Assembly: GCA_013336275.1 (NCBI GenBank)
Contig: JAAXUA010000001.1
Location: 14,167-78,166 of the forward strand
Direction: 5' to 3'
DNA: 64,000 nucleotides
Source: Candidatus Falkowbacteria bacterium
Lineage (GTDB): Bacteria > Patescibacteriota > Patescibacteriia > Patescibacteriales > GWE2-39-37
Of the stretch, positions 655-57,576 are shown in pieces; the stretch's first letter is position 1, and each line of letters opens with the position of its first letter. The notes below the pieces were generated by a model. It ran no database searches. It was not told where the DNA came from and saw only the letters and a list, made by a program, of their open reading frames with translations. A program made the translations under genes and the position numbers.

Positions 655-728
655 AGCCCGCATTCGTCATCGTTTTTCCTGCTTAGACGAGTACGTATGC
701 GCGATAAAAACGATGACGAATGCGGGCT
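655..728. repeat. Long hairpin element, copy 1: 23-bp perfect stem around a conserved core shared with 57469-57540
   Basis: Arms 655-677 and 706-728 are exact reverse complements. Core 674-710 (TTTTCCTGCTTAGACGAGTACGTATGCGCGATAAAAA) matches 57487-57523 at 36 of 37 positions. The outer stem sequences differ completely between copies. Confidence 0.6.
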
Positions 729-759
729 CAACCAATTTCAATTTTTAATGAATGTGCGT

Positions 760-1856: not shown

Positions 1857-2531
1857 ATGGCCAAGCCAGCTAAATTATACCAGTTCGCCGTTATCGCCAC
1901 CGATATCACGATCTTTACCGTCGAGGACGGCGCCTTGAAGGTCCTGCTGATCAAGATGAACAAGTCTCCTTTTGAGGATTGCTGGGCCGCTCCGGGCGGC
2001 TTGATCCAGATCGACGAGTCGGTCGACCAGGCAGCCAAGCGCATCCTGGCCGAGAAGACCGGCTTGAAACAGGTCTATCTCGAACAGCTTTATACTTTCG
2101 GCGAGGTCAAACGCGATCCGTTCGGCCGCGTCGTTTCAGTGGCCTATTTCGCCTTGATTTCAAGTGACGGTCTCAAATTGGCAACTTCCGACGAGCATCG
2201 GGAGATCAGCTGGTTCAGCGTCAATGAGCTGCCCAAGCTGGCCTATGACCATAAGGCGATGATCAGGTCGGCCATCGAGCGCTTGAGAGGGAAGTTGGAA
2301 TACACCAACATCGTCTACAGCCTGCTGCCCGACGCCTTTACCTTGAGCGAGCTGCAGAGCGCCTATGAGACGATCCTCGGCCGTACGCTGGACAAGCGCA
2401 ATTTCCGCAAGAAGGTCCTTTCGTTGGGCATGATCAGGAAAACGGGCAAGCTGGATCTGGGCAAGAAGAATCGCCCGGCCGAGCTCTATTCTTTCATCGA
2501 GAAGAAGTTGAAGAATATCGAGATATTGTAG
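1857..2531 (+). CDS. nrtR: Nudix-related transcriptional regulator of NAD metabolism (Nudix fold plus C-terminal winged HTH)
   Basis: N-terminal Nudix-like domain (GGLIQIDESVDQAAKRILAEKTGL) and C-terminal wHTH region (FTLSELQSAYETILGRTLDKRNFRKKV). It heads an NAD gene cluster. Confidence 0.85.
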   Translation: MAKPAKLYQFAVIATDITIFTVEDGALKVLLIKMNKSPFEDCWAAPGGLIQIDESVDQAAKRILAEKTGLKQVYLEQLYTFGEVKRDPFGRVVSVAYFALISSDGLKLATSDEHREISWFSVNELPKLAYDHKAMIRSAIERLRGKLEYTNIVYSLLPDAFTLSELQSAYETILGRTLDKRNFRKKVLSLGMIRKTGKLDLGKKNRPAELYSFIEKKLKNIEIL

Positions 2532-2576
2532 CAGGGGAGAGATAGGGAAGCTTAAGGATATATTTTTTAAGGTGAG

Positions 2577-2597
2577 TTAGTGTAGTATTTACAATAA
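2577..2597. promoter_or_regulatory. Candidate NrtR operator 2
   Basis: TTAGTGTAGTATTTACAATAA has the same TTAGTGT-N7-ACAnTAA pattern as 1827-1847. It overlaps a possible TACAAT -10 (2590-2595) upstream of nadM. Confidence 0.5.
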
Positions 2598-2806
2598 ATC
2601 AGGGAAACAAGGCCAGTAATAGAACAAGTCATTTTTTCAAATATTAGCAAATAAGTGGTTGTAAAACAGTGGCATCCAGTAATTGACAAAAATGGTTGAA
2701 AATGCTATGGTTTGTAATCTTTTTGCATAAAAAGGGCGCTCTTTTCATCGTGAATAATTCGATTAAAAAATATCTAACTTTGGCCAAAATTTTGAAGGAG
2801 GTCGAC

Positions 2807-3898
2807 ATGTCGAAACTGATGAGGCAGAAAATCTTGGAAACGATACTTTTCATTGGCAGGTTCAGCCCGCCCCACAAAGGGCACATCAAGGCGATTCTGG
2901 GGCTCCTAGCAATGTATGACCGGGTGGTCATCGTGCTCGGGAGCTGCTACGAAGTCGGTACGCCAAGGCATCCTTTGCTCGCGATTTATCGGGAAAAGAT
3001 GCTGCTTTACAGCCTGAAGCAGGCCGGAGTGGATATGCGGCGCATCAAGATCGTCCATCTGGAGGACTTCAACAACTGGGAAGCCTGGTGGAAGAAGATC
3101 ATGACGATCTGCAAGCGTTACAGCGCCAAGCAGGTCAGTACTGGCAATGTCGAAGACATCATCGGTCCGTTGACCGAGAAAGGCTTGCTGCCGGATTGGC
3201 TCAAGCTGGTCAACTGCGAAGCTGAACTGCCGGAGCAGTACCGCTACAACTACCGCGCGACCGATTTGCGCAATGCCGTGCTCAGGGGAGATTACCGGAT
3301 GTTTCTGGAAATCGCCGCACCGGGCACGGTCGCGCTGATGGGTAACGTCGGCGGATTCGTCGGCATCAGGCAAGCGCTCGCCAACCAAGGCAAGCGGTTC
3401 GTGCCTGGCCGTCAAGCCGTCGATGCGATTATCGTCACCGAGCATCGCGGCAAGACCTGGATCATGTGCGGCTACCGCAGTCCGGAGAAGCGCAACTTCC
3501 CCGGGTGCCTGGCCATACCGGGTGGCGGTGTCTGGCAGTTCGAAAGTCCGATCGACACGACGTTGAGAGAGGTCAAGCAAGAGACCGGTTTCGAGTTCGT
3601 CATCCTTGATCGTTGCTTGGAACCGGCGCATGTCATGCTCAAAGGCATCGACGTCTTGTGCGAAATGAAGTCGCTCGGCATCTTCTCGACGCCGGACAAG
3701 GGCAAGGCGGGAGACCAAGGCGGCTCATCGCAGCCGTTCCTCTTCCGCCTGGATGTCCATCCGCGCGAGCTCCGTCCGCTGATCAAGGAATCAAGCGAGC
3801 TGTTGCAGGTCGATTTCTACCCCGAAGACTACGTCAAAAAGCAAGGCTTGGCATTCCAGCAGCTCGAAATGGTACAGAAAGCAGGTTATTGCCTGTAA
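2807..3898 (+). CDS. nadM: Bifunctional NMN adenylyltransferase (NadM type) / Nudix ADP-ribose pyrophosphatase
   Basis: GRFSPPHKGH (HxGH nucleotidyltransferase motif) and a RATDLR second motif. C-terminal Nudix box GGGVWQFESPIDTTLREVKQETGF. GGAGG lies 6 nt before ATG 2807. Confidence 0.85.
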   Translation: MSKLMRQKILETILFIGRFSPPHKGHIKAILGLLAMYDRVVIVLGSCYEVGTPRHPLLAIYREKMLLYSLKQAGVDMRRIKIVHLEDFNNWEAWWKKIMTICKRYSAKQVSTGNVEDIIGPLTEKGLLPDWLKLVNCEAELPEQYRYNYRATDLRNAVLRGDYRMFLEIAAPGTVALMGNVGGFVGIRQALANQGKRFVPGRQAVDAIIVTEHRGKTWIMCGYRSPEKRNFPGCLAIPGGGVWQFESPIDTTLREVKQETGFEFVILDRCLEPAHVMLKGIDVLCEMKSLGIFSTPDKGKAGDQGGSSQPFLFRLDVHPRELRPLIKESSELLQVDFYPEDYVKKQGLAFQQLEMVQKAGYCL

Positions 3899-3921
3899 AA
3901 CATCCGACGAGGAGGGAAAAG

Positions 3922-4647
3922 ATGAAGAAGATTTCGATTGGAAATGAAGATGCGCTTCTGGCCATCGACGTGCAGCCCACGTTCATGTCCTGCGGCGAAC
4001 TGGCAGTAAGAGACGGGCACCTGATCGTGCCGGTCATCAGACGTCTCATGGATGTCTTCGACAAAAAGAGAAGATACGCCAGCAAGGACTGGCACCCCAA
4101 GGGGCATGTCTCCTTCGCCAGTTCCTACGTCTTTACGGACACCCCGGTCATCGCAGTAGCTGACGTCAGACAATGGATCGAAACGAACGCCGCTTACCTG
4201 AGCTGCAACGCCCGGTTCAACGTCTTTGAACTGCTGCAATATCTTGCGGTCGTCGGCGAACAGCGGCTCTGGCCCGAACATGGCGTCGCTGACACACCTA
4301 CCGCCAGGTTGCATCCAGCCTTCAAAGAATCTGAGTTCAAGGCGATCATCAACAAGGGAGCCAGTCCGCTTGCCGACAGCTATAGTGCGTTCCGCGACAA
4401 TGGCGGTGAAGCAACCAAGCTTGCTGCCCTCCTCCATGCCGACGACATCAAACGCTGTTTCTTTGTCGGCCTGGCAGAGGATTTCTGCGTCGGCTGGAGC
4501 GCCCTCGACGCTGTGAAAATGGGGTTCATGGCCTACGTGATCGAGGACGCCACCCGTCCGGTTGACTGGAACGGCAGCCAAGCTGCCATCAGAAAGTCGT
4601 TCGCTGAACGCGGCGTCAAAGTCATCCAGTCGACAGATATCCTGTAA
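3922..4647 (+). CDS. pncA: Nicotinamidase (isochorismatase family)
   Basis: LLAIDVQPTF, DWHP and GLAEDFCV (catalytic Cys context). SD GAGGAGGG upstream of ATG 3922. The track start at 3613 is an upstream extension overlapping nadM. Confidence 0.85.
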   Translation: MKKISIGNEDALLAIDVQPTFMSCGELAVRDGHLIVPVIRRLMDVFDKKRRYASKDWHPKGHVSFASSYVFTDTPVIAVADVRQWIETNAAYLSCNARFNVFELLQYLAVVGEQRLWPEHGVADTPTARLHPAFKESEFKAIINKGASPLADSYSAFRDNGGEATKLAALLHADDIKRCFFVGLAEDFCVGWSALDAVKMGFMAYVIEDATRPVDWNGSQAAIRKSFAERGVKVIQSTDIL

Positions 4648-4662
4648 TCGAATTGTCGCATC

Positions 4663-4693
4663 GGCGGACGCTTGCACTAAGCAAGCGTCCGCC
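4663..4693 (+). other. Intercistronic GC hairpin
   Basis: 13-bp perfect stem GGCGGACGCTTGC/GCAAGCGTCCGCC with a 5-nt loop. No adjacent U-tract. Confidence 0.5.
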
Positions 4694-4740
4694 ACCCCAA
4701 TTTTAGAAAATTGCGATTGGAAGAATCGGTCGCAGCTTTC

Positions 4741-4765
4741 TTGCCTCGACATCGTGTCGAGGCAA
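4741..4765 (+). other. Intercistronic hairpin
   Basis: 11-bp perfect stem TTGCCTCGACA/TGTCGAGGCAA with a 3-nt loop. Confidence 0.5.
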
Positions 4766-4812
4766 AAGATCTTTACATCAACATATTTCAACAGAGAAAG
4801 GGAGGATGACCA

Positions 4813-5877
4813 ATGGGGAAACATGAATTGAGAGACAGGGTGATAGGGATGTTCCTAGGAATCGCCATCGGCGATGCGCTCGGAATGCCGTTCGAGAAGG
4901 TTTTTACCCCGGCTGAGCTATTGGCGATGCCGGACGAAGTCTTCGCTGACTATCAGGATCCGCCGCCAGGACACAAGTTCCACGACGGTAAGCTCAAGGC
5001 CGGCGAGACGACCGATGATACGCAATTGTCGCTGGTCGTAGCCGAATCCTTGATCGCCTGCGGAAGGATCGACATGGATGACATGGCACGACGTCATGTC
5101 GAGGCCATGGATGATCGGGTTTCTGGCTGGGGCAAAGGCACGTTGACGGCAGTAGAACGTCTCAAGTCAGGCGTGTCCTGGCGCGAGTCCGGTATGCCGA
5201 CTAGCGGCAATGGCGTGATGATGAAAATATCACCGTTGGCTGCGATGTTCATCTTGCAGAAACAGCCGTTCAAGAACGGTCTAGGCCCTAAGCCGCACGT
5301 CAAGGCCGCAGCCTTGGCCAGCCGGACCACTGATGGATTATTCGATTTGGCACAGATGACTCACAAGACAAGGTTGGGTGTCGAACAGGGAATAATGCAA
5401 TTCAGTCTCGCATCGCTCTGTTTCGACTGGAGGAATGGCAACGGCTTCATTACGGAGTTCTTCAAGCGCGCGATCATGCTGAGCCTGCAGGTCGAGGCCA
5501 GAAGGGAGCATTTCGATTTCGACATCGACGCCGAGCCTGATCTTTCGAGAAGGATCATCAACTTGATGTGCGAAAAGCATCACCTGAAAGACCTTGCGTT
5601 CTTGGCGGATTATTACGGCGACAAGCCATTCTACGTCTATAATTCGCTACCGCTAACTTACGCCTGCTTCCTCAAGGACCACGACAGCTTCCAGGCTGTC
5701 ATCAACGCGATCCGGGTCGGCGGCGACACCGACACCAATGCCTCAATCGTCGGGGCCTTGCTTGGAGCCAAGAACGGCACTGCGGTCTTCCCGCAAACGC
5801 TCGTCGATGGCCTCAAGGAAAAAGACAAGATTCTCGATGTTGCGGAGCGATTTTGCGACAAATTCCTGCCACTATAA
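4813..5877 (+). CDS. ADP-ribosylglycohydrolase family protein
   Basis: N-terminal GIAIGDALGMPFE and C-terminal GGDTDTNASIVGALLGA motifs of the ARH/DraG family. SD GGGAGG upstream. Confidence 0.85.
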   Translation: MGKHELRDRVIGMFLGIAIGDALGMPFEKVFTPAELLAMPDEVFADYQDPPPGHKFHDGKLKAGETTDDTQLSLVVAESLIACGRIDMDDMARRHVEAMDDRVSGWGKGTLTAVERLKSGVSWRESGMPTSGNGVMMKISPLAAMFILQKQPFKNGLGPKPHVKAAALASRTTDGLFDLAQMTHKTRLGVEQGIMQFSLASLCFDWRNGNGFITEFFKRAIMLSLQVEARREHFDFDIDAEPDLSRRIINLMCEKHHLKDLAFLADYYGDKPFYVYNSLPLTYACFLKDHDSFQAVINAIRVGGDTDTNASIVGALLGAKNGTAVFPQTLVDGLKEKDKILDVAERFCDKFLPL

Positions 5878-5898
5878 CACTGAAAAGGAGAACGAATA

Positions 5899-7455
5899 AT
5901 GTCACAGTTAAAGGCTTTGCTTACCGACCTGTATCAACTGACGATGCTTTACGGCTACTGGCTAGCCGGGCGGCACGAGGAAGAAGCGAGCTTCGACCTC
6001 TTTTTCCGCAAGCACCCCTTCGGCGGCGAGTTCACTATCTTTGCCGGCCTGGAAGATGTCATTACCTACCTCGAAGCATTCAAGTTCGACGATGATGACA
6101 TCGCCTATCTCAAGAGCGTGATGCCTCATTGGCGGCCGGAATTCTTCGACTGGCTCAAGAAGCTTGACTGCTCGAACCTCCGAGTCGACGCCATCGACGA
6201 AGGCAAGCTGGTTTTTCCCAGCGTACCCCTCCTTCGTGCCAGCGGCCACCTCGGCATCGCCCAGCTGGTCGAGACAGCATTCCTGTACATGGTCAATTTC
6301 CCGTCGCTCATCACGACTCAGGCAGCACGCCTGCGTTTGGCAGCCGGTTTCGACAAAGAATGCCTGGAATTCGGTATCCGCCGGGCTCAGGACGCGATGC
6401 GGGCCTCGAAGTATGCCTACATGGGCGGCTTCGATGGCACGAGCAACGTCCTGGCTGGCCAGCGGTACGGCATCAAGGTCAGGGGCACTCACGCCCACTC
6501 CTGGGTAATGAGCTTTACCAGCCTTGCCCAGCTGCCGAACCGTATGATGCCCGACGCGAAAGGCGAAATCCGCGATTTCGTCGAAAGCGTCGAATACTTC
6601 CGCGCCATTTATGCGGGCGAGGGACAGCAGACGAATAGCGGAGAATTAGCCGCTTTTACGCAGTATGCCATGGCTTATCCCGACACCTTTCTCGCCCTGG
6701 TTGACACATACGACACGCTGAAATCCGGCGCACCGAATTTTTCATTCGTTGCTAGGGCCTTGAACAGCTTCGGCTACAAGGCGCTTGGCGTCAGGTTGGA
6801 TTCGGGCGATTTGGCCTACCTCTCAACCAGGATCAGGGAAGTTTTCGACCAAGTGCCATGCTTGGCTGGCTGCAAGATCGTGGCCAGCAATGATCTGGAC
6901 GAAGGCAAGCTGCTGTCGTTCAAAACGCAAAAGCACGCCATCGACGCCTACGGCATCGGTACGGCCCTGGTCACTTGCGCCGACCAGCCGGCGCTCGGCG
7001 GAGTTTACAAGCTGAGCAAGATCAATGGCGACCCGCGGATGAAGTTTTCCCAAGTTCCGGAAAAGAACACTATACCCGGAGTCAAAATACCTTACCGGCT
7101 CTACGGACACGACGGCAAGCCGATCATCGACCTGATGACCGGCGAAGAAGAATCTTCGCCGCAAATCGGAGAAAAGACGCATTGCCGCCACCCGTTCAAC
7201 CCCTCCAAGCGCGCCATCGTGGTGCCTACCAGCGTTGAACCGTTGCATCGCTGCGCCTGGAATGGCTCCAGAATCCGCCCCTCGGCTTCTCTTGCTGACC
7301 GCCGGGAACTGGTTATCAGCCAGCTGCAAGGGATGCCCGAAGACATGTCGAGAACAGAAAACCCTCGGCCTTACAAAGTTGCGGTCAGCGAAAAACTCTA
7401 CCAGGAGATCCAAACGCTGCGCGATACCGAAGTACCTGTTGAAATATTGAGTTGA
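5899..7455 (+). CDS. pncB: Nicotinate phosphoribosyltransferase (long, eukaryote-like type)
   Basis: LTDLYQLTMLYGYW, FELFFR-type block and GTHAHSWVMSF. SD AAGGAG upstream. Confidence 0.9.
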   Translation: MSQLKALLTDLYQLTMLYGYWLAGRHEEEASFDLFFRKHPFGGEFTIFAGLEDVITYLEAFKFDDDDIAYLKSVMPHWRPEFFDWLKKLDCSNLRVDAIDEGKLVFPSVPLLRASGHLGIAQLVETAFLYMVNFPSLITTQAARLRLAAGFDKECLEFGIRRAQDAMRASKYAYMGGFDGTSNVLAGQRYGIKVRGTHAHSWVMSFTSLAQLPNRMMPDAKGEIRDFVESVEYFRAIYAGEGQQTNSGELAAFTQYAMAYPDTFLALVDTYDTLKSGAPNFSFVARALNSFGYKALGVRLDSGDLAYLSTRIREVFDQVPCLAGCKIVASNDLDEGKLLSFKTQKHAIDAYGIGTALVTCADQPALGGVYKLSKINGDPRMKFSQVPEKNTIPGVKIPYRLYGHDGKPIIDLMTGEEESSPQIGEKTHCRHPFNPSKRAIVVPTSVEPLHRCAWNGSRIRPSASLADRRELVISQLQGMPEDMSRTENPRPYKVAVSEKLYQEIQTLRDTEVPVEILS

Positions 7456-7475
7456 CGCCCAAGCGTCAGCATTTC

Positions 7476-7500
7476 GGCGGAGAGACCAGTTCTCTCCGCC
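7476..7500 (+). other. Intercistronic GC hairpin
   Basis: 10-bp perfect stem GGCGGAGAGA/TCTCTCCGCC with a 5-nt loop. No U-tract. Confidence 0.45.
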
Positions 7501-7589
7501 TCCTTACTGGAGCTGCCGATCGATTCGGCATTTGCAGCAAGGAGGACGACCTTTGAAATAAGAATATCGATTACAGAAAGGAGCGACCC

Positions 7590-8405
7590 ATGAAAACCAA
7601 AGGCAAGATTGTGTATTATCCTATTTTCCACGACCCCCAAAGGAACGGCTCGGAAAGGAGCGACAAAGTCAAGAAGTGGGTAGAGCAATTCCTGATCCCG
7701 GCCGGACTGGCCACGATGGACGAAAGCAAGGCTAATGCTTATCTGGTTGCGACCGGAGATGGCGGCCTCATGCGCATCGCCCACGAGAGGTATCAGCGCG
7801 GTAAGGCTATCGTCGGTATCAATTGCGGCCGCTTAGGCTTTCTCTTGAATCCGATCAGCGACATCACCGAGCTGCCGCAGTCATTCGAAGAGCTGACCCT
7901 CTTCAAGCTAAGGCTGTTCAACGTCACATTTGTTCACAGTGATTGGGGAAGGACGCACAGCGTCGTTTTCAACGATGTGGTTGTCGGACACGACGTCTCG
8001 GATTTCATCAGTTTCAAGATCAAGGGAGAGATGAGCCACTTTCCGGAGCGCAAAGTTTCCGGAACCGGGCTCGTCGTCGCCACGCCCCAAGGAACCACCG
8101 GCTACGCGCTAAAAGCGCGGGGAAGCATGGCAGTTCTGCCGCTCGAATCCAATAACTGGTTCATCGGCGGTATCGCCACCGGACCCTATCCCTGCGATGT
8201 GGTGACTCCGCAGACGATCACCATCGAGATGGAATCACGCGACCAGATCAACGGCTACGCAGACGGCAAGGGTTTCAAGGCGGAAAATATCCGTCAGCTC
8301 ATCATCGAACCATCGGAGCACTCGATAGCGCTCGGCTTTATGAGCGGTATCGACTTCCAGGCTAGACGCACCACCTTGGCCCAGCAAATCGAACGAGGCG
8401 AATGA
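7590..8405 (+). CDS. nadK: NAD kinase
   Basis: ATGDGGLMR (GGDG motif), NDVVV and TPQGTTGYALKARGS. SD AAGGAG upstream. Confidence 0.85.
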   Translation: MKTKGKIVYYPIFHDPQRNGSERSDKVKKWVEQFLIPAGLATMDESKANAYLVATGDGGLMRIAHERYQRGKAIVGINCGRLGFLLNPISDITELPQSFEELTLFKLRLFNVTFVHSDWGRTHSVVFNDVVVGHDVSDFISFKIKGEMSHFPERKVSGTGLVVATPQGTTGYALKARGSMAVLPLESNNWFIGGIATGPYPCDVVTPQTITIEMESRDQINGYADGKGFKAENIRQLIIEPSEHSIALGFMSGIDFQARRTTLAQQIERGE

Positions 8406-8427
8406 TCACCCCAAATCGGAGGAGACA

Positions 8428-9402
8428 ATGAAGAATCTGGAAAACGTAGTCATCTTTTCTACCAAGGCATCGCTGTATTTCGCTGAACTTATCGCCATGA
8501 GGCTCGGCCTCGAAGTCGGCAGCATCGAGCATAAGGATTTCGGCGGCGTTGAACAGTACTACCGCATCGGCATGGCCAACCGCGACGACCTCATCGGCAA
8601 GACCGCTATTTTCGTGGGCAGTACACATACGGATGACCAGGTCAACGAGCTTTATCGGGTCGGCAGCGCTCTCGCGGGTTATGGAACAGTCAGGCGGATC
8701 TTCGTCATCCCGTTTCTCGGCTATTCGACCATGGAACGGGCCAAATACCCGGGAGAGGTCGTGATGGCCAAGGTCATCGCACGCCAGCTCTCGAACATCC
8801 CGAATTCCGGGATGGGCAATGTTTTCCTGATGATGGATCTGCATGTCTCCGGCTTGGTACACTACTTCGAGGGAGATTGCCAGCGGTATGAGCTCTACGC
8901 CGAGAAACAGCTGACCATCGCGATGAGCGAGCTCAAGCTGGACAACTTCATGTTCGCTTCGGCGGATCTGGGGCGGCCGGCCTGGGTAGCGACTTTTGCC
9001 AAGCTCTTTCAGACCAGCTTCGCGCTGATAGACAAGGGCAGGGAATTCGATGAGACAGAAGTCCTGGCGGTGATCGGCGATGTCCGCGGCAAGAACGTCA
9101 TCATTTACGATGACATGACGCGGAGCGCCACCACCATCATCAATGCTGCCAATGCCTATATCGAGCATGGCGCTACCGGCGTCTATGCGGTCCTGAGCCA
9201 TTGCGCCTTGAACCACCCAAACATCATCGGCCATCTGATCAACTCACCCATCAAGAAGGTGATCACGACTAATACCCATCCAATATCCCAAGAAGTGGCC
9301 CACATCAGCAAGCTCCAGAGCCCACTCGCCGGCCGGTTCCAGGTCTGCGATGTCTCAGGCGAATTCGTCAGAACCATCCAGAAAGTCTTGAACAACAACT
9401 AG
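8428..9402 (+). CDS. Ribose-phosphate pyrophosphokinase homolog, divergent
   Basis: Prs-like over its full length (PFLGY, MDLH, DKGR, DD-loop). The canonical ARQDR is STMER here, and the DDxIDTGGT ribose-5-P loop is YDDMTRSATT. Confidence 0.75.
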   Translation: MKNLENVVIFSTKASLYFAELIAMRLGLEVGSIEHKDFGGVEQYYRIGMANRDDLIGKTAIFVGSTHTDDQVNELYRVGSALAGYGTVRRIFVIPFLGYSTMERAKYPGEVVMAKVIARQLSNIPNSGMGNVFLMMDLHVSGLVHYFEGDCQRYELYAEKQLTIAMSELKLDNFMFASADLGRPAWVATFAKLFQTSFALIDKGREFDETEVLAVIGDVRGKNVIIYDDMTRSATTIINAANAYIEHGATGVYAVLSHCALNHPNIIGHLINSPIKKVITTNTHPISQEVAHISKLQSPLAGRFQVCDVSGEFVRTIQKVLNNN

Positions 9403-9432
9403 CACGACAAAACTGTTTTGAAAGGAGAGCAT

Positions 9433-10344
9433 ATGGAAAGACGGATGTTTTTCGGCAGGAACGGCGGCAAGGTCACTGAGGTGACCAAGGAGAAAGCCGC
9501 GGAAATGAAACCGCAACTGGTCCTGGACACGGCCTCGATGCTTGAGGAAAGGACCCACCTTTGCCACCACGACTGCCAGAATGACGAGATTATTGAATTC
9601 GTCCAGACATCTTACGATGGCTGGGGAAAATTCGGCTCGGATGGCGATCTGATCGTCGTCTGCTTTTACCGGCTTAACGAGGGGGCTTGTGTCGCCCAGA
9701 TTGAGTTCATCGGACGGCTGCAGCGGTGCAAACCTTCTCTGGCAGCTGATATCATTCCGGTGATTACAGACAGCGAAGGCAACACTTTCTTCGTCCTGAT
9801 CCATCGGAAATACGACCCGGGCAAAGGCAAGATCGCCCTGATCGGTGGCAACGAGGAGGTGATCGGACCCTACTTCCAGACTCCGACTGCCACCCTGCAG
9901 ATGGAGGCAATGGAGGAAGTGAATCTGGTGCTCGTGCCCCAAGTTGGCGCCGAGCAGGATTTTTTCCACCGTCCGTTCATCCCGAGGGTGCCGGTGAAAG
10001 TCAAGCTCCGACAGCGCGAAGTCTCCGAGACCGACAGCGAATTGATTCTGCTCGGAACCTATGAGACTTCAGCAGAAGAGGAGAGGCCGCACCTGAAGGC
10101 CAAGCGCATCAACTGGACTACGGCCTACATCCTGCCGATCAGGGTAGATTTCCCGGTCGACAAGGAGATGCTGACCCGCTGGTTCCGTGCGGGCGATGAT
10201 GCCGAGAAGATGGCATTCGTCAATCTGGCGACCGACCCCTATCCGGAGTTCGGCATCGGCCATCACGGCACGATCTTCTCCGACGCCATGGAAGCGCTCC
10301 GCCGGGAATACCCGATGAAGGTCTGCACTGCGCTCCACGAATAG
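9433..10344 (+). CDS. Hypothetical protein with degenerate Nudix-like box
   Basis: IGGNEEVIGPYFQTPTATLQMEAMEEVNL resembles GX5EX7REUXEEXGU with R replaced by M and G by N. SD AAGGAGAG lies before ATG 9433. Confidence 0.45.
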   Translation: MERRMFFGRNGGKVTEVTKEKAAEMKPQLVLDTASMLEERTHLCHHDCQNDEIIEFVQTSYDGWGKFGSDGDLIVVCFYRLNEGACVAQIEFIGRLQRCKPSLAADIIPVITDSEGNTFFVLIHRKYDPGKGKIALIGGNEEVIGPYFQTPTATLQMEAMEEVNLVLVPQVGAEQDFFHRPFIPRVPVKVKLRQREVSETDSELILLGTYETSAEEERPHLKAKRINWTTAYILPIRVDFPVDKEMLTRWFRAGDDAEKMAFVNLATDPYPEFGIGHHGTIFSDAMEALRREYPMKVCTALHE

Positions 10345-10367
10345 TTATGTAATCGATATCCGAAACA

Positions 10368-10391
10368 CGGGCAGGAATCCGTTCCTGCCCG
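10368..10391 (+). other. Intercistronic GC hairpin
   Basis: 10-bp perfect stem CGGGCAGGAA/TTCCTGCCCG with a 4-nt loop. Confidence 0.45.
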
Positions 10392-10497
10392 CTTCACCCA
10401 AGCTTCCGAAGCCATTTCGGGGACTTAGGTGAAGCAGTTCATTACAACAATGAATATATCCGCAATCAAATCCAACCGAGAAAAAAGGAGGAGTACG

Positions 10498-12960
10498 ATG
10501 CCGAACAGCGAAAAGAAAGCCAAGGTCGCAATCTGCCAGATGCCCGTAACATTGGGGCGTCCCGATCTCAACACGGTCTACATGGAGGAGGAAATCAAGA
10601 AGGCGGCTGCGGACGGAGTCGAAATCATCATCTTTCCCGAGATGTGCGTCCCCGGTTATCTGATCGGTGATGCCTATGAAGATGAGTCCTTCGTCTTTGA
10701 CGTCCTTAATTGTAACGAGCGCCTGCGCTTGGCAACCAAGGACCTGGCCATTACGGCGATCTTCGGATCGATCAGCGCCCACGCGCAAGCCTGGGGCGAG
10801 GACGGACGGATGCTTAAAAGCAACGGCATCTTCGCCGCAGCGAACGGAGAATGGCTGTATCAGGGCGAAAAGTCTCTGCAACCGAACTACCGGATGTTCG
10901 ACGACGATCGCCATTTCTGCAGCAAGCGCAAACTGCGCGACCGGATCGAGGCCAGCGCCAATCGTGCAATGACTATCCAAAGCATGTTCGAGACGGTAGA
11001 AATCCCGTTGGCAACCGGCAGCATCATTGCCGGTATTATTGAATGCGAGGATATGTGGGACAAGGATTATCCTTTCAGCCCCACCAAGATCCTGGTCGAA
11101 ATGGGGGCCGAGCTGATCATTAATCTCTCGGCTTCGCCCTGGACCTGGCAGAAGAACCGCAAGCGCCACTCGGTAGTCAAGGAACTTCTGACCGAAAATC
11201 CGGTTCCTTTCGTCTACGTCAACAACACCGGAGTGCAGAATAACGGGAAAAACCTGGTCATTTTCGATGGCAGCTCGACAGTCTATAATCAGGCCGGAGA
11301 CATCGCCCTCGAAGTGCCGCCTTTCTTTGCCGGAACCGAAACCTTCGACCTGTCCTGGGAGATGCCGGCAATCGAACCGATCATCCTGGATGACACTACT
11401 CAGCTGTATCAGGCGCTCCGCCATGGGGTGAAGCAGTTTCTCTGGAACATGCCGCCAGAAAGGCGCAAGATGATCATCGGCTTGTCCGGCGGCATCGACT
11501 CAGCCTTGGCAGCTGCCTTCTACGTCGACATCCTCGGCCCGAGAAACGTCTATCTCTACAACCTGCCGACCGATTTCAATAGCGACGAGACCAAATCAAT
11601 TGCGGCGGAAATTGCGCGCAACCTGGGAACGCACTACGAAGTCGTACCTATCCAAGGCGTGGTCGACGCCATCGCCAAAGCCACCGGGTGCGATCCGGAA
11701 AAGGACGAGCTGACCTACGAGAATATCCAGGCGCGTGTGCGCATGGAGATCTTGGCAGCCGAGGCACAGAAGCTCGGCGGCCTGTTCAGCTGCAACAGCA
11801 ACAAAGTGGAAGTCGCTTTCGGCTACGGCACAATGTACGGAGACATCGCCGGCTATCTGGCCGCCTTCGGTGACCTAGTCAAGCGGGAAGTCTACCAGTT
11901 GGCAGACTACTTCAACCGCGTCGTTTTCGAAAGGGAAATCATACCGCAGTCGTGCTTCAAAATAAAGCCCAAGGCCGAATTGAAGCGGGACCAGAAAGAC
12001 CCGTTCGACTACGGCAACCTCGAAGTCCGCGGCTACCACGACGAGATGGTCCGCGCCATGACTGAATTCCGCTGGAATCCGGAGAAATTCGTAGAGAAGT
12101 ATGTTGCCGGCAAGCTCGAAAAGGAGCTTAAGCTCGAACCGGGAACGCTCAAGCGGCTGTTTCCCAACGTGCGGGACTTCCTCTCCGATCTTGAAAAATC
12201 GTGGCGGTTGTTCTTTGACGCCTACCGCAAGCGGGTACAGGCACCACCCATCCCGATCGTAACCAAGCGAGCCTTCGGTTTCGACCTTCGCGAGGCGCTG
12301 ATGAGCGCCCATTTTACAGCCCGCTACCACACTCTGCGGGACCTGGCGTTGAAAGTCTTTCCGGCGCCTCTGGAAATAGCCGTCTTCGGGGGAAGTTTTA
12401 ATCCCCCGGGAAGGCATCACCAGGAAATCGCCGGAATGCTGACCATGTTCGACAAGATCGTTATCGTCCCTTGCGGAGCAAGGGCAGATAAGCCGTCGGC
12501 CAACATCGTGCCGATAGAACACCGCCGCGTTATGGCACTGCTCGCATTCCCCGAAAGCGAACGGATAAAGTTGGATTTGCATGATTTTGAAACCGGCGAA
12601 TATACGCCTACCTATCTTTTGGATCGGCGCTACAAAGAGCTTTATCCGGGGTCGGAAATCTGGCATGTCATCGGTGAAGATATTATCGCCGGCGGTAGCA
12701 AGGGCGAATCAGAAATCCAGCGCACTTGGAATCGCGGACCCCAGATCTGGGAAACGCTGAATTGGGCGGTCTTGACTCGCAAGGGCTATGGAGCCGATAA
12801 GGCTGATCTGCCGCCGCACCACATGCTGATCGAGGTCGAAGGCGTCTTCGGGTCCGGGACACTCATCCGGGATCGTCTCAAGGACGGCTTTGCGATAAAC
12901 GACCTGGTTTCCCCCCAAGTTGCGGATTATATTTATGAACACGACCTCTACCTCGAGTAG
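10498..12960 (+). CDS. nadE: Triple-domain fusion: CN-hydrolase (glutaminase) + NAD synthetase + NaMN adenylyltransferase-like domain
   Basis: N-terminal nitrilase-type domain (VAICQMPV.., FPEMCVPGY, CEDMW). Central PP-loop GLSGGIDSALAA. C-terminal VFGGSFNPPGRHH plus SGTLIRDRL, which is NadD-like. SD AAGGAGGAG upstream. Confidence 0.85.
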   Translation: MPNSEKKAKVAICQMPVTLGRPDLNTVYMEEEIKKAAADGVEIIIFPEMCVPGYLIGDAYEDESFVFDVLNCNERLRLATKDLAITAIFGSISAHAQAWGEDGRMLKSNGIFAAANGEWLYQGEKSLQPNYRMFDDDRHFCSKRKLRDRIEASANRAMTIQSMFETVEIPLATGSIIAGIIECEDMWDKDYPFSPTKILVEMGAELIINLSASPWTWQKNRKRHSVVKELLTENPVPFVYVNNTGVQNNGKNLVIFDGSSTVYNQAGDIALEVPPFFAGTETFDLSWEMPAIEPIILDDTTQLYQALRHGVKQFLWNMPPERRKMIIGLSGGIDSALAAAFYVDILGPRNVYLYNLPTDFNSDETKSIAAEIARNLGTHYEVVPIQGVVDAIAKATGCDPEKDELTYENIQARVRMEILAAEAQKLGGLFSCNSNKVEVAFGYGTMYGDIAGYLAAFGDLVKREVYQLADYFNRVVFEREIIPQSCFKIKPKAELKRDQKDPFDYGNLEVRGYHDEMVRAMTEFRWNPEKFVEKYVAGKLEKELKLEPGTLKRLFPNVRDFLSDLEKSWRLFFDAYRKRVQAPPIPIVTKRAFGFDLREALMSAHFTARYHTLRDLALKVFPAPLEIAVFGGSFNPPGRHHQEIAGMLTMFDKIVIVPCGARADKPSANIVPIEHRRVMALLAFPESERIKLDLHDFETGEYTPTYLLDRRYKELYPGSEIWHVIGEDIIAGGSKGESEIQRTWNRGPQIWETLNWAVLTRKGYGADKADLPPHHMLIEVEGVFGSGTLIRDRLKDGFAINDLVSPQVADYIYEHDLYLE

Positions 12961-12970
12961 GGTCGCAATC

Positions 12971-13007
12971 GGTGCGCGGGGCAAGGCCACAAGCCTGCCC
13001 CCGCACC
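12971..13007 (+). other. Intercistronic GC hairpin
   Basis: 15 bp with two single-nt bulges (GGTGCGcGGGGCAaGGC / GCCTGCCCCCGCACC) and a 5-nt loop. Confidence 0.45.
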
Positions 13008-16295: not shown

Positions 16296-17240
16296 ATGAA
16301 AATAATCGCCACCCTGCCGCCGCCCCATCAAGCCGACAGGCTCAAAGCGGTGGCCGAACATCCGTTGGTCGAGGAAGCTCGATTCAACGTTGGCATGCGC
16401 ACGCCGTATGGCCCGAAAGAGACATTGGAGCGCCTGCTTGCTGCCATGGGCGGCAAGCCGCTCTGGATCGATCTCAAGGGCCGCCAGCTGCGCATCATGC
16501 AGTGGGCCGTGCCCACCTACGGAGATATCATCCTGAGCCACAAGGTCAAAGTCGACCTGCCCGCCAGGATCGAGTTCCGCGGCGGGCAATATTCAGACAT
16601 CGTCGAAGTTCGGGGCAACCGTATCTTCGTCGAACCGGACCCGCCCAGCGCCCTCGGTCGCGGCCAGTCCGTCAATATCCATGGTGAAAACCTGGAAATC
16701 GACGGCTATCTGACCCGTGAAGACAAAGCCTACATCAAGGCAGCCAAAGAACTTGGCATCCACCGCTACATGCTGTCCTTCGTCGAAGGCAGTCAGGATA
16801 TCGAGGATGTGTTTGCTCTCGACTCCAAGGCTGAGATGATTGCCAAGATCGAATCCTTGAAAGGTCTCGCCTACATCGGAACCCTGGAGTTCAACGAGTA
16901 TGTCGCTCTAAACATCGTACGTCCGATGGCGGCCAGGGATGACCTGTACGCCAATATCGGACAGGATAAATTCCGTATTTTCTCCGCTCTGCAATCTATC
17001 ATCAATTCCACGTCGGAGGCCATCGTCGCTTCGCGTCTCTGCGAGTCGCTCCGAAAGAGTACTGAGCCGAGCCTGAGCGATCTGGCTGACCTGATGCTTC
17101 TGCGTCAGATCGGCTACCGTGAATTCATGCTCTCTGACGAACTTTGCAAGGATACTGACGCTTTCTTACGCGCCATGGAAACCTTGGCAGTACTTGGAGA
17201 ACGGACGCGAGACACGGTCAGTCGGATTACGCTCGACTGA
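16296..17240 (+). CDS. Pyruvate-kinase-like TIM-barrel protein lacking the PK C-terminal domain
   Basis: Collinear with the PK A/B domains: KIIATLPP, ARFNVGMR, IDLKGRQLRI, LTREDKAYI..LSFV, IAKIES, AARDDLYANIG, ASRLCESL..PSLSDLADL. SD GAGGAGG lies before ATG 16296. Confidence 0.7.
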   Translation: MKIIATLPPPHQADRLKAVAEHPLVEEARFNVGMRTPYGPKETLERLLAAMGGKPLWIDLKGRQLRIMQWAVPTYGDIILSHKVKVDLPARIEFRGGQYSDIVEVRGNRIFVEPDPPSALGRGQSVNIHGENLEIDGYLTREDKAYIKAAKELGIHRYMLSFVEGSQDIEDVFALDSKAEMIAKIESLKGLAYIGTLEFNEYVALNIVRPMAARDDLYANIGQDKFRIFSALQSIINSTSEAIVASRLCESLRKSTEPSLSDLADLMLLRQIGYREFMLSDELCKDTDAFLRAMETLAVLGERTRDTVSRITLD

Positions 17241-17271
17241 ACAACAACCAACAAAGAATGGAGGTGGCGAT

Positions 17272-18636
17272 ATGGCTGATAAGATCATCGTCGTCACCGG
17301 CCTAAGTTTCGGTGACGAAGGCAAGGGAACGATAACGGAGTACATGGCACAGCGTCATTCAGCCGGATGCGTCGTTCGCTATAACGGCGGACCGCAGGCG
17401 GCCCACAACGTCGTGCTCCAGAACCAGCTGCACCATTGCTTCGCGCAATTCGGTTCAGCGACTTTCCAACATGGCGTCAAAACCTTTCTGTCAGAACAGA
17501 CAGTAGTGAACCCCATTTCCTTATTATCTGAAGCAGACACGCTTTCAGAGCAGGGGGTCACAGACGCGCTGGAACGGCTGATTGCCAGTCCCTCGTGCCT
17601 GGTAGCGACCCCGTTCCACAAACACCATAACCGCATGCTGGAATTGGCGCGCGGCAACGCCCGCCACGGCAGCTGCGGCATGGGAGTCGGACAGACCATA
17701 AGCGATGCCCGCTACTTGGGCAACATGGCCTTACGTCTCGGCGATCTCAACGACAGCGAAAAAGCGAGGCACAAGCTCGATTTCCTCTGGCGCCTGAAGA
17801 TCGACCAAGCAGAGCAGCTGCTCGCCAAACATACCGGCAATCAAGCATTGCGCCAGGAGTTTGACTTGCTAGCCGCTCCTGGCTATGTCGAAGACGTGTT
17901 TGAGGCTTACGCTTCAATCGCGTCCCGGCTCAATATCAGCGATCAGCCGCCTACAAGCGGCACACTGGTATTCGAAGGAGCGCAAGGCATGCTTCTTGAT
18001 AACACCTACGGTTTTCATCCGCACGTCGCAAAATCTGACGTCAGCCCCAGGGCAGCCGTCCGTTTGGCAACCAAGCATTGGCCAGGCCATGAGATCATCA
18101 GAGTCGGCGTGCTCCGCGCTTATGCTACCCGCCACGGCGCCGGACCATTCGTGACAGAGGATATCATTCTTGCTGAAGCGATTCCGGACAGGCACAACAG
18201 CTTCGGTGATTGGCAAGGACGCTTCCGCGTCGGCTGGTTCGATCTCGTAGCTGCAAGCTACGCTATCGAAGCCTCGGGCGGAATCGATTGCCTAGCCCTG
18301 ACCAACCTGGATCGCATCAGCGATTTCGGGGTAGTCAAGCTTTGCATCGGTTATGAGTATTCCGGCGACCAGCCGCTCGATGAAGATTTCGAGTGGCGTC
18401 AATTCGGCGGGCGAAAAGTGATAGAAAGGATTAAGGCAGACGCTAATCCTAGCACGGAGAAGCAGGCGGCATTGTCCGGCATCCTCTATGATTGCCGTCC
18501 CATATACCGCACCTTGTCCATCAGGGACCCAAAAGCCTACGTCCAGCGCTTGGAAACAGCGCTCGGCGTTCCTGTCGCTATCGTCTCATCCGGACCGACA
18601 CTTCAAGATAAGGAGGAAATTTATAGCTTATTTTAG
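17272..18636 (+). CDS. Adenylosuccinate synthetase-like protein, divergent
   Basis: GLSFGDEGKGTITEYM (P-loop GDEGKG), RYNGGPQAAHNVV, GSCGMGVGQTISDA, EGAQGMLLDNTYGFHPHV, YATRHGAGPFVTE. Several substrate-contact motifs differ from canonical PurA. Confidence 0.8.
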   Translation: MADKIIVVTGLSFGDEGKGTITEYMAQRHSAGCVVRYNGGPQAAHNVVLQNQLHHCFAQFGSATFQHGVKTFLSEQTVVNPISLLSEADTLSEQGVTDALERLIASPSCLVATPFHKHHNRMLELARGNARHGSCGMGVGQTISDARYLGNMALRLGDLNDSEKARHKLDFLWRLKIDQAEQLLAKHTGNQALRQEFDLLAAPGYVEDVFEAYASIASRLNISDQPPTSGTLVFEGAQGMLLDNTYGFHPHVAKSDVSPRAAVRLATKHWPGHEIIRVGVLRAYATRHGAGPFVTEDIILAEAIPDRHNSFGDWQGRFRVGWFDLVAASYAIEASGGIDCLALTNLDRISDFGVVKLCIGYEYSGDQPLDEDFEWRQFGGRKVIERIKADANPSTEKQAALSGILYDCRPIYRTLSIRDPKAYVQRLETALGVPVAIVSSGPTLQDKEEIYSLF

Positions 18637-27537: not shown

Positions 27538-27846
27538 TAAAAGTCGGTTCTTAGAGCAATGTTTGCCCGCGTAGGGCAAATCAACAAGCTAATTCGGTAA
27601 GATAGCTTAAAGCCCCTGCAGCCTCTACAACTGCATGGGATCGAGCCGAATAACCCCCACACTTGTGTCCATAACGGATGAACCTGTGGGAATGGTGAAT
27701 TACCCCATGCAATTTGCCTCCGACACTTGTGAACGCAAGTGTGGGGGAGCGGGATTCCGGTTGATTTGTCCGAACTAACGCGCCGCAAGCGCAATAAGAA
27801 CTCAAACTTCGTCCCCCTTAACTCGGGACGACACACTAAGAATTCT

Positions 27847-57429: not shown

Positions 57430-57468
57430 GATTCTTGGAAAATTTTATTGGTAAGCAATCTTCGTTGG

Positions 57469-57540
57469 TCCGGCTTCCGGCATGGCTTTTCCTGCTTAGA
57501 CGAGTACGTATGCGCTATAAAAACCATGCCGGAAGCCGGA
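57469..57540. repeat. Long hairpin element, copy 2
   Basis: 17-bp perfect stem TCCGGCTTCCGGCATGG/CCATGCCGGAAGCCGGA plus T4/A4 (one bulged C), enclosing the same core as 674-710. Confidence 0.6.
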
Positions 57541-57576
57541 TTAGCTCAGGGGATTATTAAAATATTATAAAATAAT

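Follow-up and report, generated by a model that had tools for sequence, protein, structure and literature searches.

Two hairpins with a common centre

The 64,000-nt stretch of a Candidatus Falkowbacteria bacterium genome analysed here (GenBank assembly GCA_013336275.1, contig JAAXUA010000001.1, positions 14,167 to 78,166), hereafter the window, contains two copies of a long nested hairpin, copy 1 (655-728) and copy 2 (57469-57540), each lying between co-directional genes of the + strand. Copy 1 is flanked by the genes for TrpRS (trpS) and Ddl (ddl), the latter product being identical to NTW21924.1 of Candidatus Falkowbacteria bacterium, and copy 2 sits between a methyltransferase (MTase) gene and a GT2 glycosyltransferase gene within a tightly packed glycosylation cluster or operon. 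An earlier sequence-only reading of the window had placed both hairpins just 3' of one + strand gene and 5' of the next, which these gene assignments bear out. Comparison with related loci shows that the hairpins represent a small, lineage-restricted and previously undescribed family of nested palindromes, which are scattered among intergenic sites of Falkowbacteria-like Patescibacteria.

Inverted-repeat searches revealed that the arms of copy 1 form a perfect 23-bp repeat (655-677/706-728) separated by 28 nt, as had been claimed, and that copy 2 consists of a 22-bp repeat (57469-57490/57519-57540) with one C.A mismatch, likewise enclosing 28 nt. The segment 674-710 recurs at 57487-57523 with a single substitution (G703/T57516), again as first read, and the 25-mer core CCTGCTTAGACGAGTACGTATGCGC occurs exactly twice in the window against an expectation of 0.00 from 100 shuffles. 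Compared with shuffled sequences, both copies fold with z-scores of -6.6 to -8.8 as RNA on either strand and of -7.0 to -9.1 as DNA, the two DNA strands being equal at -31.5 and -31.0 kcal/mol. The parts of the two copies are listed below, where L-numbers denote the related loci and contigs compared.

655..672 (+): variable left arm of copy 1, 18 nt, AGCCCGCATTCGTCATCG, pairing perfectly with 711-728
673..677 (+): T5 half of the conserved A.T clamp beside the apical domain of copy 1; alignment columns 22-25 and 55-58 form U-A pairs in 9-10 of 10 copies
678..705 (+): conserved 28-nt apical domain of copy 1, CCTGCTTAGACGAGTACGTATGCGCGAT, with a predicted inner mini-hairpin (687-689/694-696) and its AGTA loop (690-693)
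706..710 (+): A5 half of the A.T clamp of copy 1, placed by inverted-repeat pairing and alignment
711..728 (+): variable right arm of copy 1, exact reverse complement of 655-672
729..759 (+): AT-rich 3' flank of copy 1, possibly within the inserted unit, the filled spacer being ~113 nt longer than the empty L008 site
57469..57490 (+): left arm and CTTTT clamp of copy 2; C57486 gives a C.A mismatch on the + strand and a G.U pair on the - strand
57491..57518 (+): apical domain of copy 2, the same as in copy 1 save for G to T at 57516
57519..57540 (+): A5 clamp and right arm of copy 2, placed by the inverted repeat
57541..57576 (+): AT-rich 3' flank of copy 2, GGGGATTATTAAAATATTATAAAATAAT, weakly resembling the tails after the L001 and L003 copies; it may be generic AT-rich sequence upstream of genes

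A conserved 3' tail was not established among the copies, where similarity is weak only. The centre is predicted to contain a 3-bp mini-hairpin (ACG-AGUA-CGU); folded alone, the apical domain is no more stable than its shuffles, which argues that the centre is conserved for its sequence and not for stability. Alignment of the arms GCCCGCATTCGTCATCG (copy 1) and TCCGGCTTCCGGCATGG (copy 2) showed the same base in register at 11 of 17 positions, at about the 95-99th percentile of shuffled arms. The earlier description of the outer arms as unrelated therefore does not stand, and the two pairs of arms are diverged homologues rather than independent sequences.

Scans of both elements returned no sigma-70 promoter inside and no terminator built from the long hairpin, and the sequence 3' of the stem contains no U-rich run of 6 nt or more, in agreement with the view that this is not an ordinary terminator. 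The only nearby terminator call, at 57464-57481 (+), is a 5-pair stem in the left arm of copy 2 followed by a CTTTT tail and lies at chance level (2 found against 0.7 expected). Rfam 15 gave no match at gathering thresholds anywhere in the 64-kb window, consistent with the statement that the core matches no described RNA family, and at E ≤ 10 only generic miRNA-hairpin noise appeared (≤23.6 bits against cut-offs of 84-100 bits). No tRNA or tmRNA was found at the elements, nor any tRNA gene elsewhere in the window. Several simpler readings were set aside as well: coding sequence across the core, as the reading frame differs from copy to copy; arms acting as guides or spacers, as they have no other above-chance match within the window; and a loop antisense to another locus, as the window and the related loci (~150 kb) contain no further instance of any core 11-mer.

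Further copies, pairing and conservation

Altogether, 10 intact copies were recovered at seven unrelated loci in at least three Falkowbacteria genomes, drawn from the window genome, the metagenome-assembled genome (MAG) GCA_964443495.1 and ENA, JGI and Logan assemblies. When one genome per GTDB species was scanned for the exact 20-mer, four further copies emerged, all on CAYUCS010000001.1 of GCA_964443495.1, while a metagenome scan added two (L005 and L006) and contigs reached via neighbouring proteins contributed L042, L046 and L007, the last being the ortholog of copy 1. L042 is an independent assembly in which copy 2 is identical. The large DNA scans matched the exact core only and would miss variants such as that of L007 elsewhere. 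The MAG (L001-L004 and L038; contigs CAYUCS010000001/2) is titled 'uncultured Gammaproteobacteria', a label that looks wrong: its LepA and Ddl are 97% and 70% identical to those of the window genome and it has the same NAD-salvage synteny, which groups it with Falkowbacteria.

A covariance model trained on nine copies matched only the two known copies in the window; outside it, the model located a diverged tandem copy at L004:117-195, next to the one at 200-277, and a decayed relic at L009:4739-4808. Another variant, at L008:3050-3160, keeps both conserved halves (TTTTCCTGCTTAGACG and CGTATGCGCAATAAAAAC) on a weak outer stem, with the AGTA tetraloop swapped for a 62-nt hairpin and the inner stem extended from ACG/CGU to ACGGAU/AUCCGU (3 to 6 bp). 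Searching ~300 kb of related DNA with a profile of the loop alone brought up no additional copy. Viral contigs gave no exact match and 28 gapped matches that correspond to chance and carry no covariance-model match, and gapped searches of viral contigs for an autonomous relative likewise returned chance matches only. As phage and plasmid collections held no copy either, a viral, phage or plasmid origin was rejected. Copy number is low, with two copies in the 64-kb window and five in a 772-kb contig. Literature searches by sequence and by topic found no description of this hairpin family.

The unit measures ~74-75 nt and comprises a variable arm of 17-19 bp, an A.T clamp of 4-6 bp (T4-6/A4-6) and the 28-nt centre. 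When the 10 copies were aligned to the covariance model, 97.1% of cells were paired and 20 of the 31 pairs had changed on both sides; none of 500 shuffles was as good, controls slid out of register paired at 31-48%, an ungapped alignment gave the same picture and RNAalifold independently predicts the same fold. Selection on a structure, which the sequence-only reading had proposed from two self-complementary copies, is thus strongly supported, the further copies too showing compensatory stem changes. The predicted stems contain 210 Watson-Crick and 5 G.U pairs, with a single G.U within the 23-bp core stem, and the four non-Watson-Crick cells are split 2:2 between strands, neither being favoured. 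Stem length is predicted at 21-26 pairs, or about two helical turns, and the T5 and A5 tracts lie approximately three helical turns apart.

The centre behaves differently from the arms. Its sequence shows 24 consecutive invariant positions in the nine copies first aligned, from which two later variant copies depart at four positions and at one, respectively. Eight copies close the inner mini-hairpin with an A-U pair, whereas L007 has G.U and L004b has G-C at this position.

Two ortholog pairs allowed arms and centre to be compared at the same site. Between copy 1 and L007, trpS is 86.5% and ddl 82.8% identical, with 37.5% of ddl third codon positions different; in the arms, 7 of 36 positions have changed, through three complete and fully compensated pair swaps plus a G-C that became G.T, against 1 of 38 in the centre plus clamp. 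Between L002 and L006, the flanking coding sequence is 94% identical and the intergenic sequence ~12-35% diverged; here, the arms differ at ~14 of 36 positions (~7 of 18 per arm) by substitutions that are all transitions and all compensated, together with a compensated 1-bp indel, against 2 of 38 in the centre (one substitution and one indel in an A-run). With both pairs pooled, the difference between arms and centre gives a Fisher p of 3e-5. Since the centre is near-frozen while the arms and the third positions of ddl diverge, the centre is under strong purifying selection at its site, and the arms drift roughly neutrally while staying paired.

Comparison of arms between loci, which are 35-60% different, revealed two subfamilies, {copy 1, L007, copy 2} and {L003, L005, L004b}, that span loci and genomes. 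Shared aligned arm positions number 15 for L005/L004b, 14 for L003/L005 and 11-12 for copy 1/copy 2. Because these subfamilies cross loci and genomes, the copied unit was the whole hairpin and not the core alone. The claim that the element does not resemble a dispersed repeat was accordingly abandoned in the face of copies at seven unrelated loci, a tandem pair, a relic, a variant, shared arm subfamilies and presence or absence between strains.

Placement, strain differences and known systems

The hairpin is sense to its flanking genes at four loci (trpS|ddl, MTase|GT2, CYTH|dnaK and lepA|orf36) and antisense at three (upstream of alaS, after a DUF4012 gene and after tgt). At the antisense loci (L002/L006, L004 with two copies, and L005) the centre is intact, the L002/L006 element being preserved in both orthologs. 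At six of the seven loci, a stop codon precedes the hairpin by 10-40 nt, and in such compact genomes the sites after stops are also where insertions are tolerated.

Occupancy varies between strains. The trpS|ddl spacer measures 124 nt in the window and is similar in L007, with the hairpin in both; in L008, whose Ddl is 88% identical, it is reduced to an empty 11 nt, the site reading GCGAATCGCAT, and in L009 (Ddl 87% identical) a different palindromic element takes its place. The latter, at L009:6160-6270, is ~105 nt long, is bounded by terminal inverted repeats of 12 bp (CTGTCATTCCCG / CGGGAATGACAG) and has a hairpin, ATTCCC-N8-GGGAAT, in its interior, a pattern suggestive of the Neisseria dRS3 repeat. 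As a site for hairpin elements, this spacer looks like a hot spot. At lepA|orf36, a ~114-nt segment with the hairpin is present in L003 and L046, and the site is empty in L043, L044, L045 and L047. The empty L047 allele, in which lepA is joined directly to TATATATAAACTC, is 98.95% identical to the filled one in lepA and 99.9% upstream.

No significant target-site duplication was found, as upstream and downstream flanks resemble each other no more than shuffled ones do (p 0.09-0.8). Where filled and empty sites could be compared, the end of the insert resembles the end of the upstream gene in both cases, though in sequence of low complexity. As the flanking direct repeats are not significant, either insertion or slippage-mediated deletion may account for the difference.

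The last 18 nt of lepA in L003, beside the hairpin, carry two differences relative to L047 (GATCTTAAAAAG to GATTTTGAAAAG), and identity between the two strains drops to 96.3% 3' of the insert, against 99.9% upstream; homologous recombination, rather than transposition, may have brought in the filled lepA|orf36 allele. A 170-nt stretch after lepA (L003, reverse complement, ~5091-5260, and L043:4358-4527) is 98.8% identical between these two strains, in which the flanking lepA and recJ are 85% and 81% identical. It codes for a conserved hydrophobic peptide of 36 residues (MFDTKRSKRIRVAWAIVSLMVIFSMVIWSVGIAFMQ) and points to either a recent recombination tract or unusually strong constraint.

Among known systems, REP/REPIN elements with their RAYT transposases are the nearest kind by lifestyle. 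They too are short, intergenic, palindromic and non-autonomous, lie mostly just 3' of genes in both orientations, can cluster, vary in copy content between strains and are thought to act as folded single strands, as proposed here for the hairpins. REP elements have a stem of 5-13 bp that is conserved within a family, a loop of 2-20 nt and an unpaired GTAG or CGTC foot tag (PMC3733652). The present family differs in its variable stem of 21-26 bp, its conserved 28-nt centre and its low copy number, and no tetranucleotide is common to the flanks of all 10 copies. A RAYT gene (Y1_Tnp) was absent from the 64-kb window, and tblastn gave no match in the window or in L001-L009.

A classical REP-RAYT-like module was observed in a relative from the candidate phyla radiation (CPR) whose Ddl is 68% identical (L040:9600-16230 and L041). 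Its Y1_Tnp gene (11020-11658) follows directly after ddl and has the perfect palindrome TTTGTCGAGGACGGTCCTCGACAAA on either side; at least three more copies of this palindrome occur nearby, and one is found inside the gene. A further Y1_Tnp gene (16935-17471) is present as well, as is a duplicated DUF6922-AbiEii module. A link between the hairpins and such a Y1 transposase was rejected, as it exists only in this more distant relative and with a different palindrome.

With regard to conservation pattern, the origins of rolling-circle replicons and CRESS-DNA elements and HUH nick sites have an invariant loop on a stem that is free in sequence as long as it pairs, and are read on single-stranded or extruded DNA; to our knowledge, they are the only well-known class with this pattern. 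Rolling-circle origin loops span ~9-12 nt and adjoin a Rep gene on a small replicon. The hairpins, with a 28-nt loop, several chromosomal copies and no Rep/HUH gene in the window, are comparable to them only as a 'works like' analogy. Integron attC sites are hairpins defined by structure, with a variable apex and middle, a conserved foot (the R''/R' core sites) and cassette arrays next to intI. The variable terminal structure at the apex of the hairpins (AGTA tetraloop versus the 62-nt hairpin in L008) is similar, and the variable foot, the housekeeping flanking genes and the lack of an integrase in the window are not.

TIGR-Tas arrays, which occur in CPR and other parasitic bacteria, combine variable, consistently palindromic stems with a loop bearing conserved motifs; the loop holds two variable spacers of 8-12 nt between box C (CCA) and box D (UG), and tandem arrays lie next to a Tas gene with a Nop domain (PMC12045711). 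In contrast, the loop described here is invariant and lacks CCA, the copies are solitary and dispersed (57 kb apart in the window), and no Nop domain was found among the window open reading frames (ORFs). The hairpins share with intrinsic terminators and mRNA 3' stabiliser hairpins their position after stop codons and a strong hairpin in either direction of transcription. Unlike an intrinsic terminator, with its GC-rich stem, loop of 3-8 nt and U-tract, they have a 23-bp stem, a 28-nt loop and no U-tract, and the ordinary terminator-like palindromes of the window have arms of 13-18 bp and loops of 1-5 nt.

Miniature inverted-repeat transposable elements (MITEs) differ in that the terminal inverted repeats of the hairpins are not conserved between copies. 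CRISPR (arrays of 28-37 nt repeats with cas) differs in that there are only two copies in 64 kb, the two flanks of each being mutual reverse complements, with no cas domains in the window. The Xer/dif site (28 bp, 11-6-11, two related arms, once per chromosome) differs in that the 11-nt halves of the centre agree at 5 of 11 positions by eye and several copies exist per genome; GCGCATA in the centre is reminiscent of the XerC arm of E. coli dif. The hairpins thus lack defining features of REP, MITE, attC, a solitary CRISPR repeat, a TIGR array, dif and an intrinsic terminator; for REP, these are the stem and loop dimensions, the conserved stem and the foot tag, and for MITEs the conserved terminal inverted repeats.

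Across the window, a Pfam scan of ~50 ORFs identified no transposase, integrase, HUH, reverse transcriptase, Cas or Nop domain. Directly 3' of ddl lies a complete NAD-salvage neighbourhood (1857-13000) with an NrtR regulator, an ADP-ribosylglycohydrolase, NAPRTase, a PRPP synthetase-like gene and a fused CN-hydrolase/NAD synthase, which is syntenic in all the relatives compared. The cumulative GC skew passes through a shallow minimum near 38 kb, where the genes do not change strand. An imperfect inverted repeat (CCCCCACACTTGTG... / ...CAAGTGTGGGGG; 21-nt arms, 86% complementary, 52 nt apart) occupies 27654-27747, just 5' of a series of three giant ORFs of 1208, 1228 and 1414 amino acids, and overlaps the earliest start listed for the leading ORF (27739). 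That ORF is without a Pfam match, whereas the second contains Laminin_G_3 and the third matches He_PIG and Y_Y_Y weakly; TSP3 repeats occur in two smaller adjoining ORFs, and the giant ORFs come after an ECF sigma factor and a DUF5667 pair.

Folded DNA, structured RNA or a host site

We tentatively favour, at somewhat less than an even balance, a nested palindrome that acts as folded DNA and is read by a putative sequence-specific factor. A unit that works in either orientation, pairs by Watson-Crick rules only and compensates an indel in both arms would fit folded DNA better than an RNA embedded in an mRNA, and mixed gene orientation together with the near absence of G.U pairs leads us to lean towards the DNA level. 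On such a model, the unit would act as a folded nucleic acid, most probably DNA, either as a hairpin on either strand when single-stranded or as a cruciform; a putative trans-acting factor would read the conserved apical domain, and the long arm would need only to pair. Arm-to-arm templated correction by intrastrand template switching, which is known from quasipalindrome mutagenesis, selection, or both would hold the arms perfectly Watson-Crick. The unit would have spread by duplication to unrelated intergenic sites, where it would still be gained or lost between strains. We infer the DNA level, the reader protein, the templated correction of the arms and the movement of copies alike from the patterns described above.

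Several observations weigh against this proposal. No trans-acting gene was found among the ~50 window ORFs, tblastn with the Y1 transposases of L040 detected no homologue in the window or L001-L009, and no significant target-site duplication, conserved foot motif or autonomous parent element was found. The strong selection on the centre in place is unlike a purely selfish repeat and fits a host function, at the level of DNA or RNA. Furthermore, the position 10-40 nt past a stop codon at six of seven loci also suits a role at RNA 3' ends, and two invariant apical U.G pairs and one G.U intermediate are favourable on the + strand only. The sample is small, with seven loci, and replication direction was taken from gene orientation only.

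The main rival, which we regard as a serious if doubtful possibility, is a cis-acting structured RNA in the 3' untranslated or intercistronic part of mRNAs, serving 3'-end protection, as an RNase III-type processing site or as a terminator that lacks a U-tract, with an apical domain that binds protein or RNA. Besides the position after stop codons, it would account for the conserved stem length of about two helical turns, the purifying selection on the centre, the apical U.G pairs that are good on the + strand only, the succession of A-U, G.U and G-C at the inner pair, and the replacement of the apical tetraloop in L008 by a long hairpin with an extended inner stem. It is harder to reconcile with the three of seven loci that are antisense to all neighbouring genes and yet keep an intact centre (L002/L006 even between orthologs), or with G.U pairs being almost absent among ~200 stem pairs, which is unusual for selection at the RNA level; nor was a shared promoter found upstream of the copies. 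In addition, copy 2 resides inside a tight operon and the trpS|ddl spacer of L008 retains only 11 nt, so that the element can be dispensed with and strong termination is an improbable role for it.

An unlikely alternative is that of a host chromosomal site, not mobile by itself, for a protein that binds double-stranded DNA or cruciforms, for example a recombinase core-type, replication or nucleoid-organisation site. The 28-bp centre would then be the binding site, with partial 11-6-11 dyad symmetry that coincides with the inner pairs and with flanking phased A-tracts (the T5/A5 tracts about three helical turns apart), the arms would serve extrusion or bending, and copies would arise by rare duplication and be lost by slippage across the hairpin. 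Independence of orientation, Watson-Crick-only pairing and the low copy number agree with such a site, as does the invariance of an asymmetric sequence across genomes with ~85% identical lepA (L043 being used as proxy strain, with the same 97% LepA protein identity). Against it stand the dispensability of single sites between 99%-identical strains, the existence of a relic and a tandem pair, the lack of a recombinase gene among the window ORFs, and the fact that only GCGCATA resembles the XerC arm of dif, a site present once per chromosome, and the other arm does not match.

Highly improbable is a mobile mini-element of 38 nt that repeatedly entered the tips of terminator palindromes already in place, with arms representing target DNA: the conserved part is indeed central and ordinary terminator-like palindromes with arms of 13-18 bp occur in the window (I6, I10, I11, I13 and I14), but the arms are homologous across loci and genomes, the empty sites of L008 and L047 contain no bare palindrome and the inserted segment is ~113 nt, not 38, so that shared arms and empty sites contradict tip insertion.

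Beyond folded DNA read by a sequence-specific factor, a further-reaching view, which we consider rather unlikely at present, is that the family is no selfish repeat but a new class of host-maintained structured signal in CPR, whose apical domain would dock a dedicated putative factor and whose stem would be a sequence-free spacer of about two helical turns kept paired by arm-to-arm copying. If this were true, the presence of both orientations would yield transcripts with exactly complementary 28-nt loops that could pair and thereby tie together the fates of mRNAs that are otherwise unrelated.

CPR (Patescibacteria) genomes are small and repeat-poor, and almost nothing is known of their non-coding elements. 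The hairpin family reverses the usual pattern of bacterial palindromic repeats, as the loop is conserved and the stem is free, and it shows the rare combination of strong purifying selection on the centre in place with presence that varies between strains. It also provides a clean natural case of long palindromes that stay perfect while their sequence drifts. Should a reader protein exist, its identification would point to either a novel mechanism by which DNA hairpins move or a novel cis-signal in organisms that are not yet genetically tractable.

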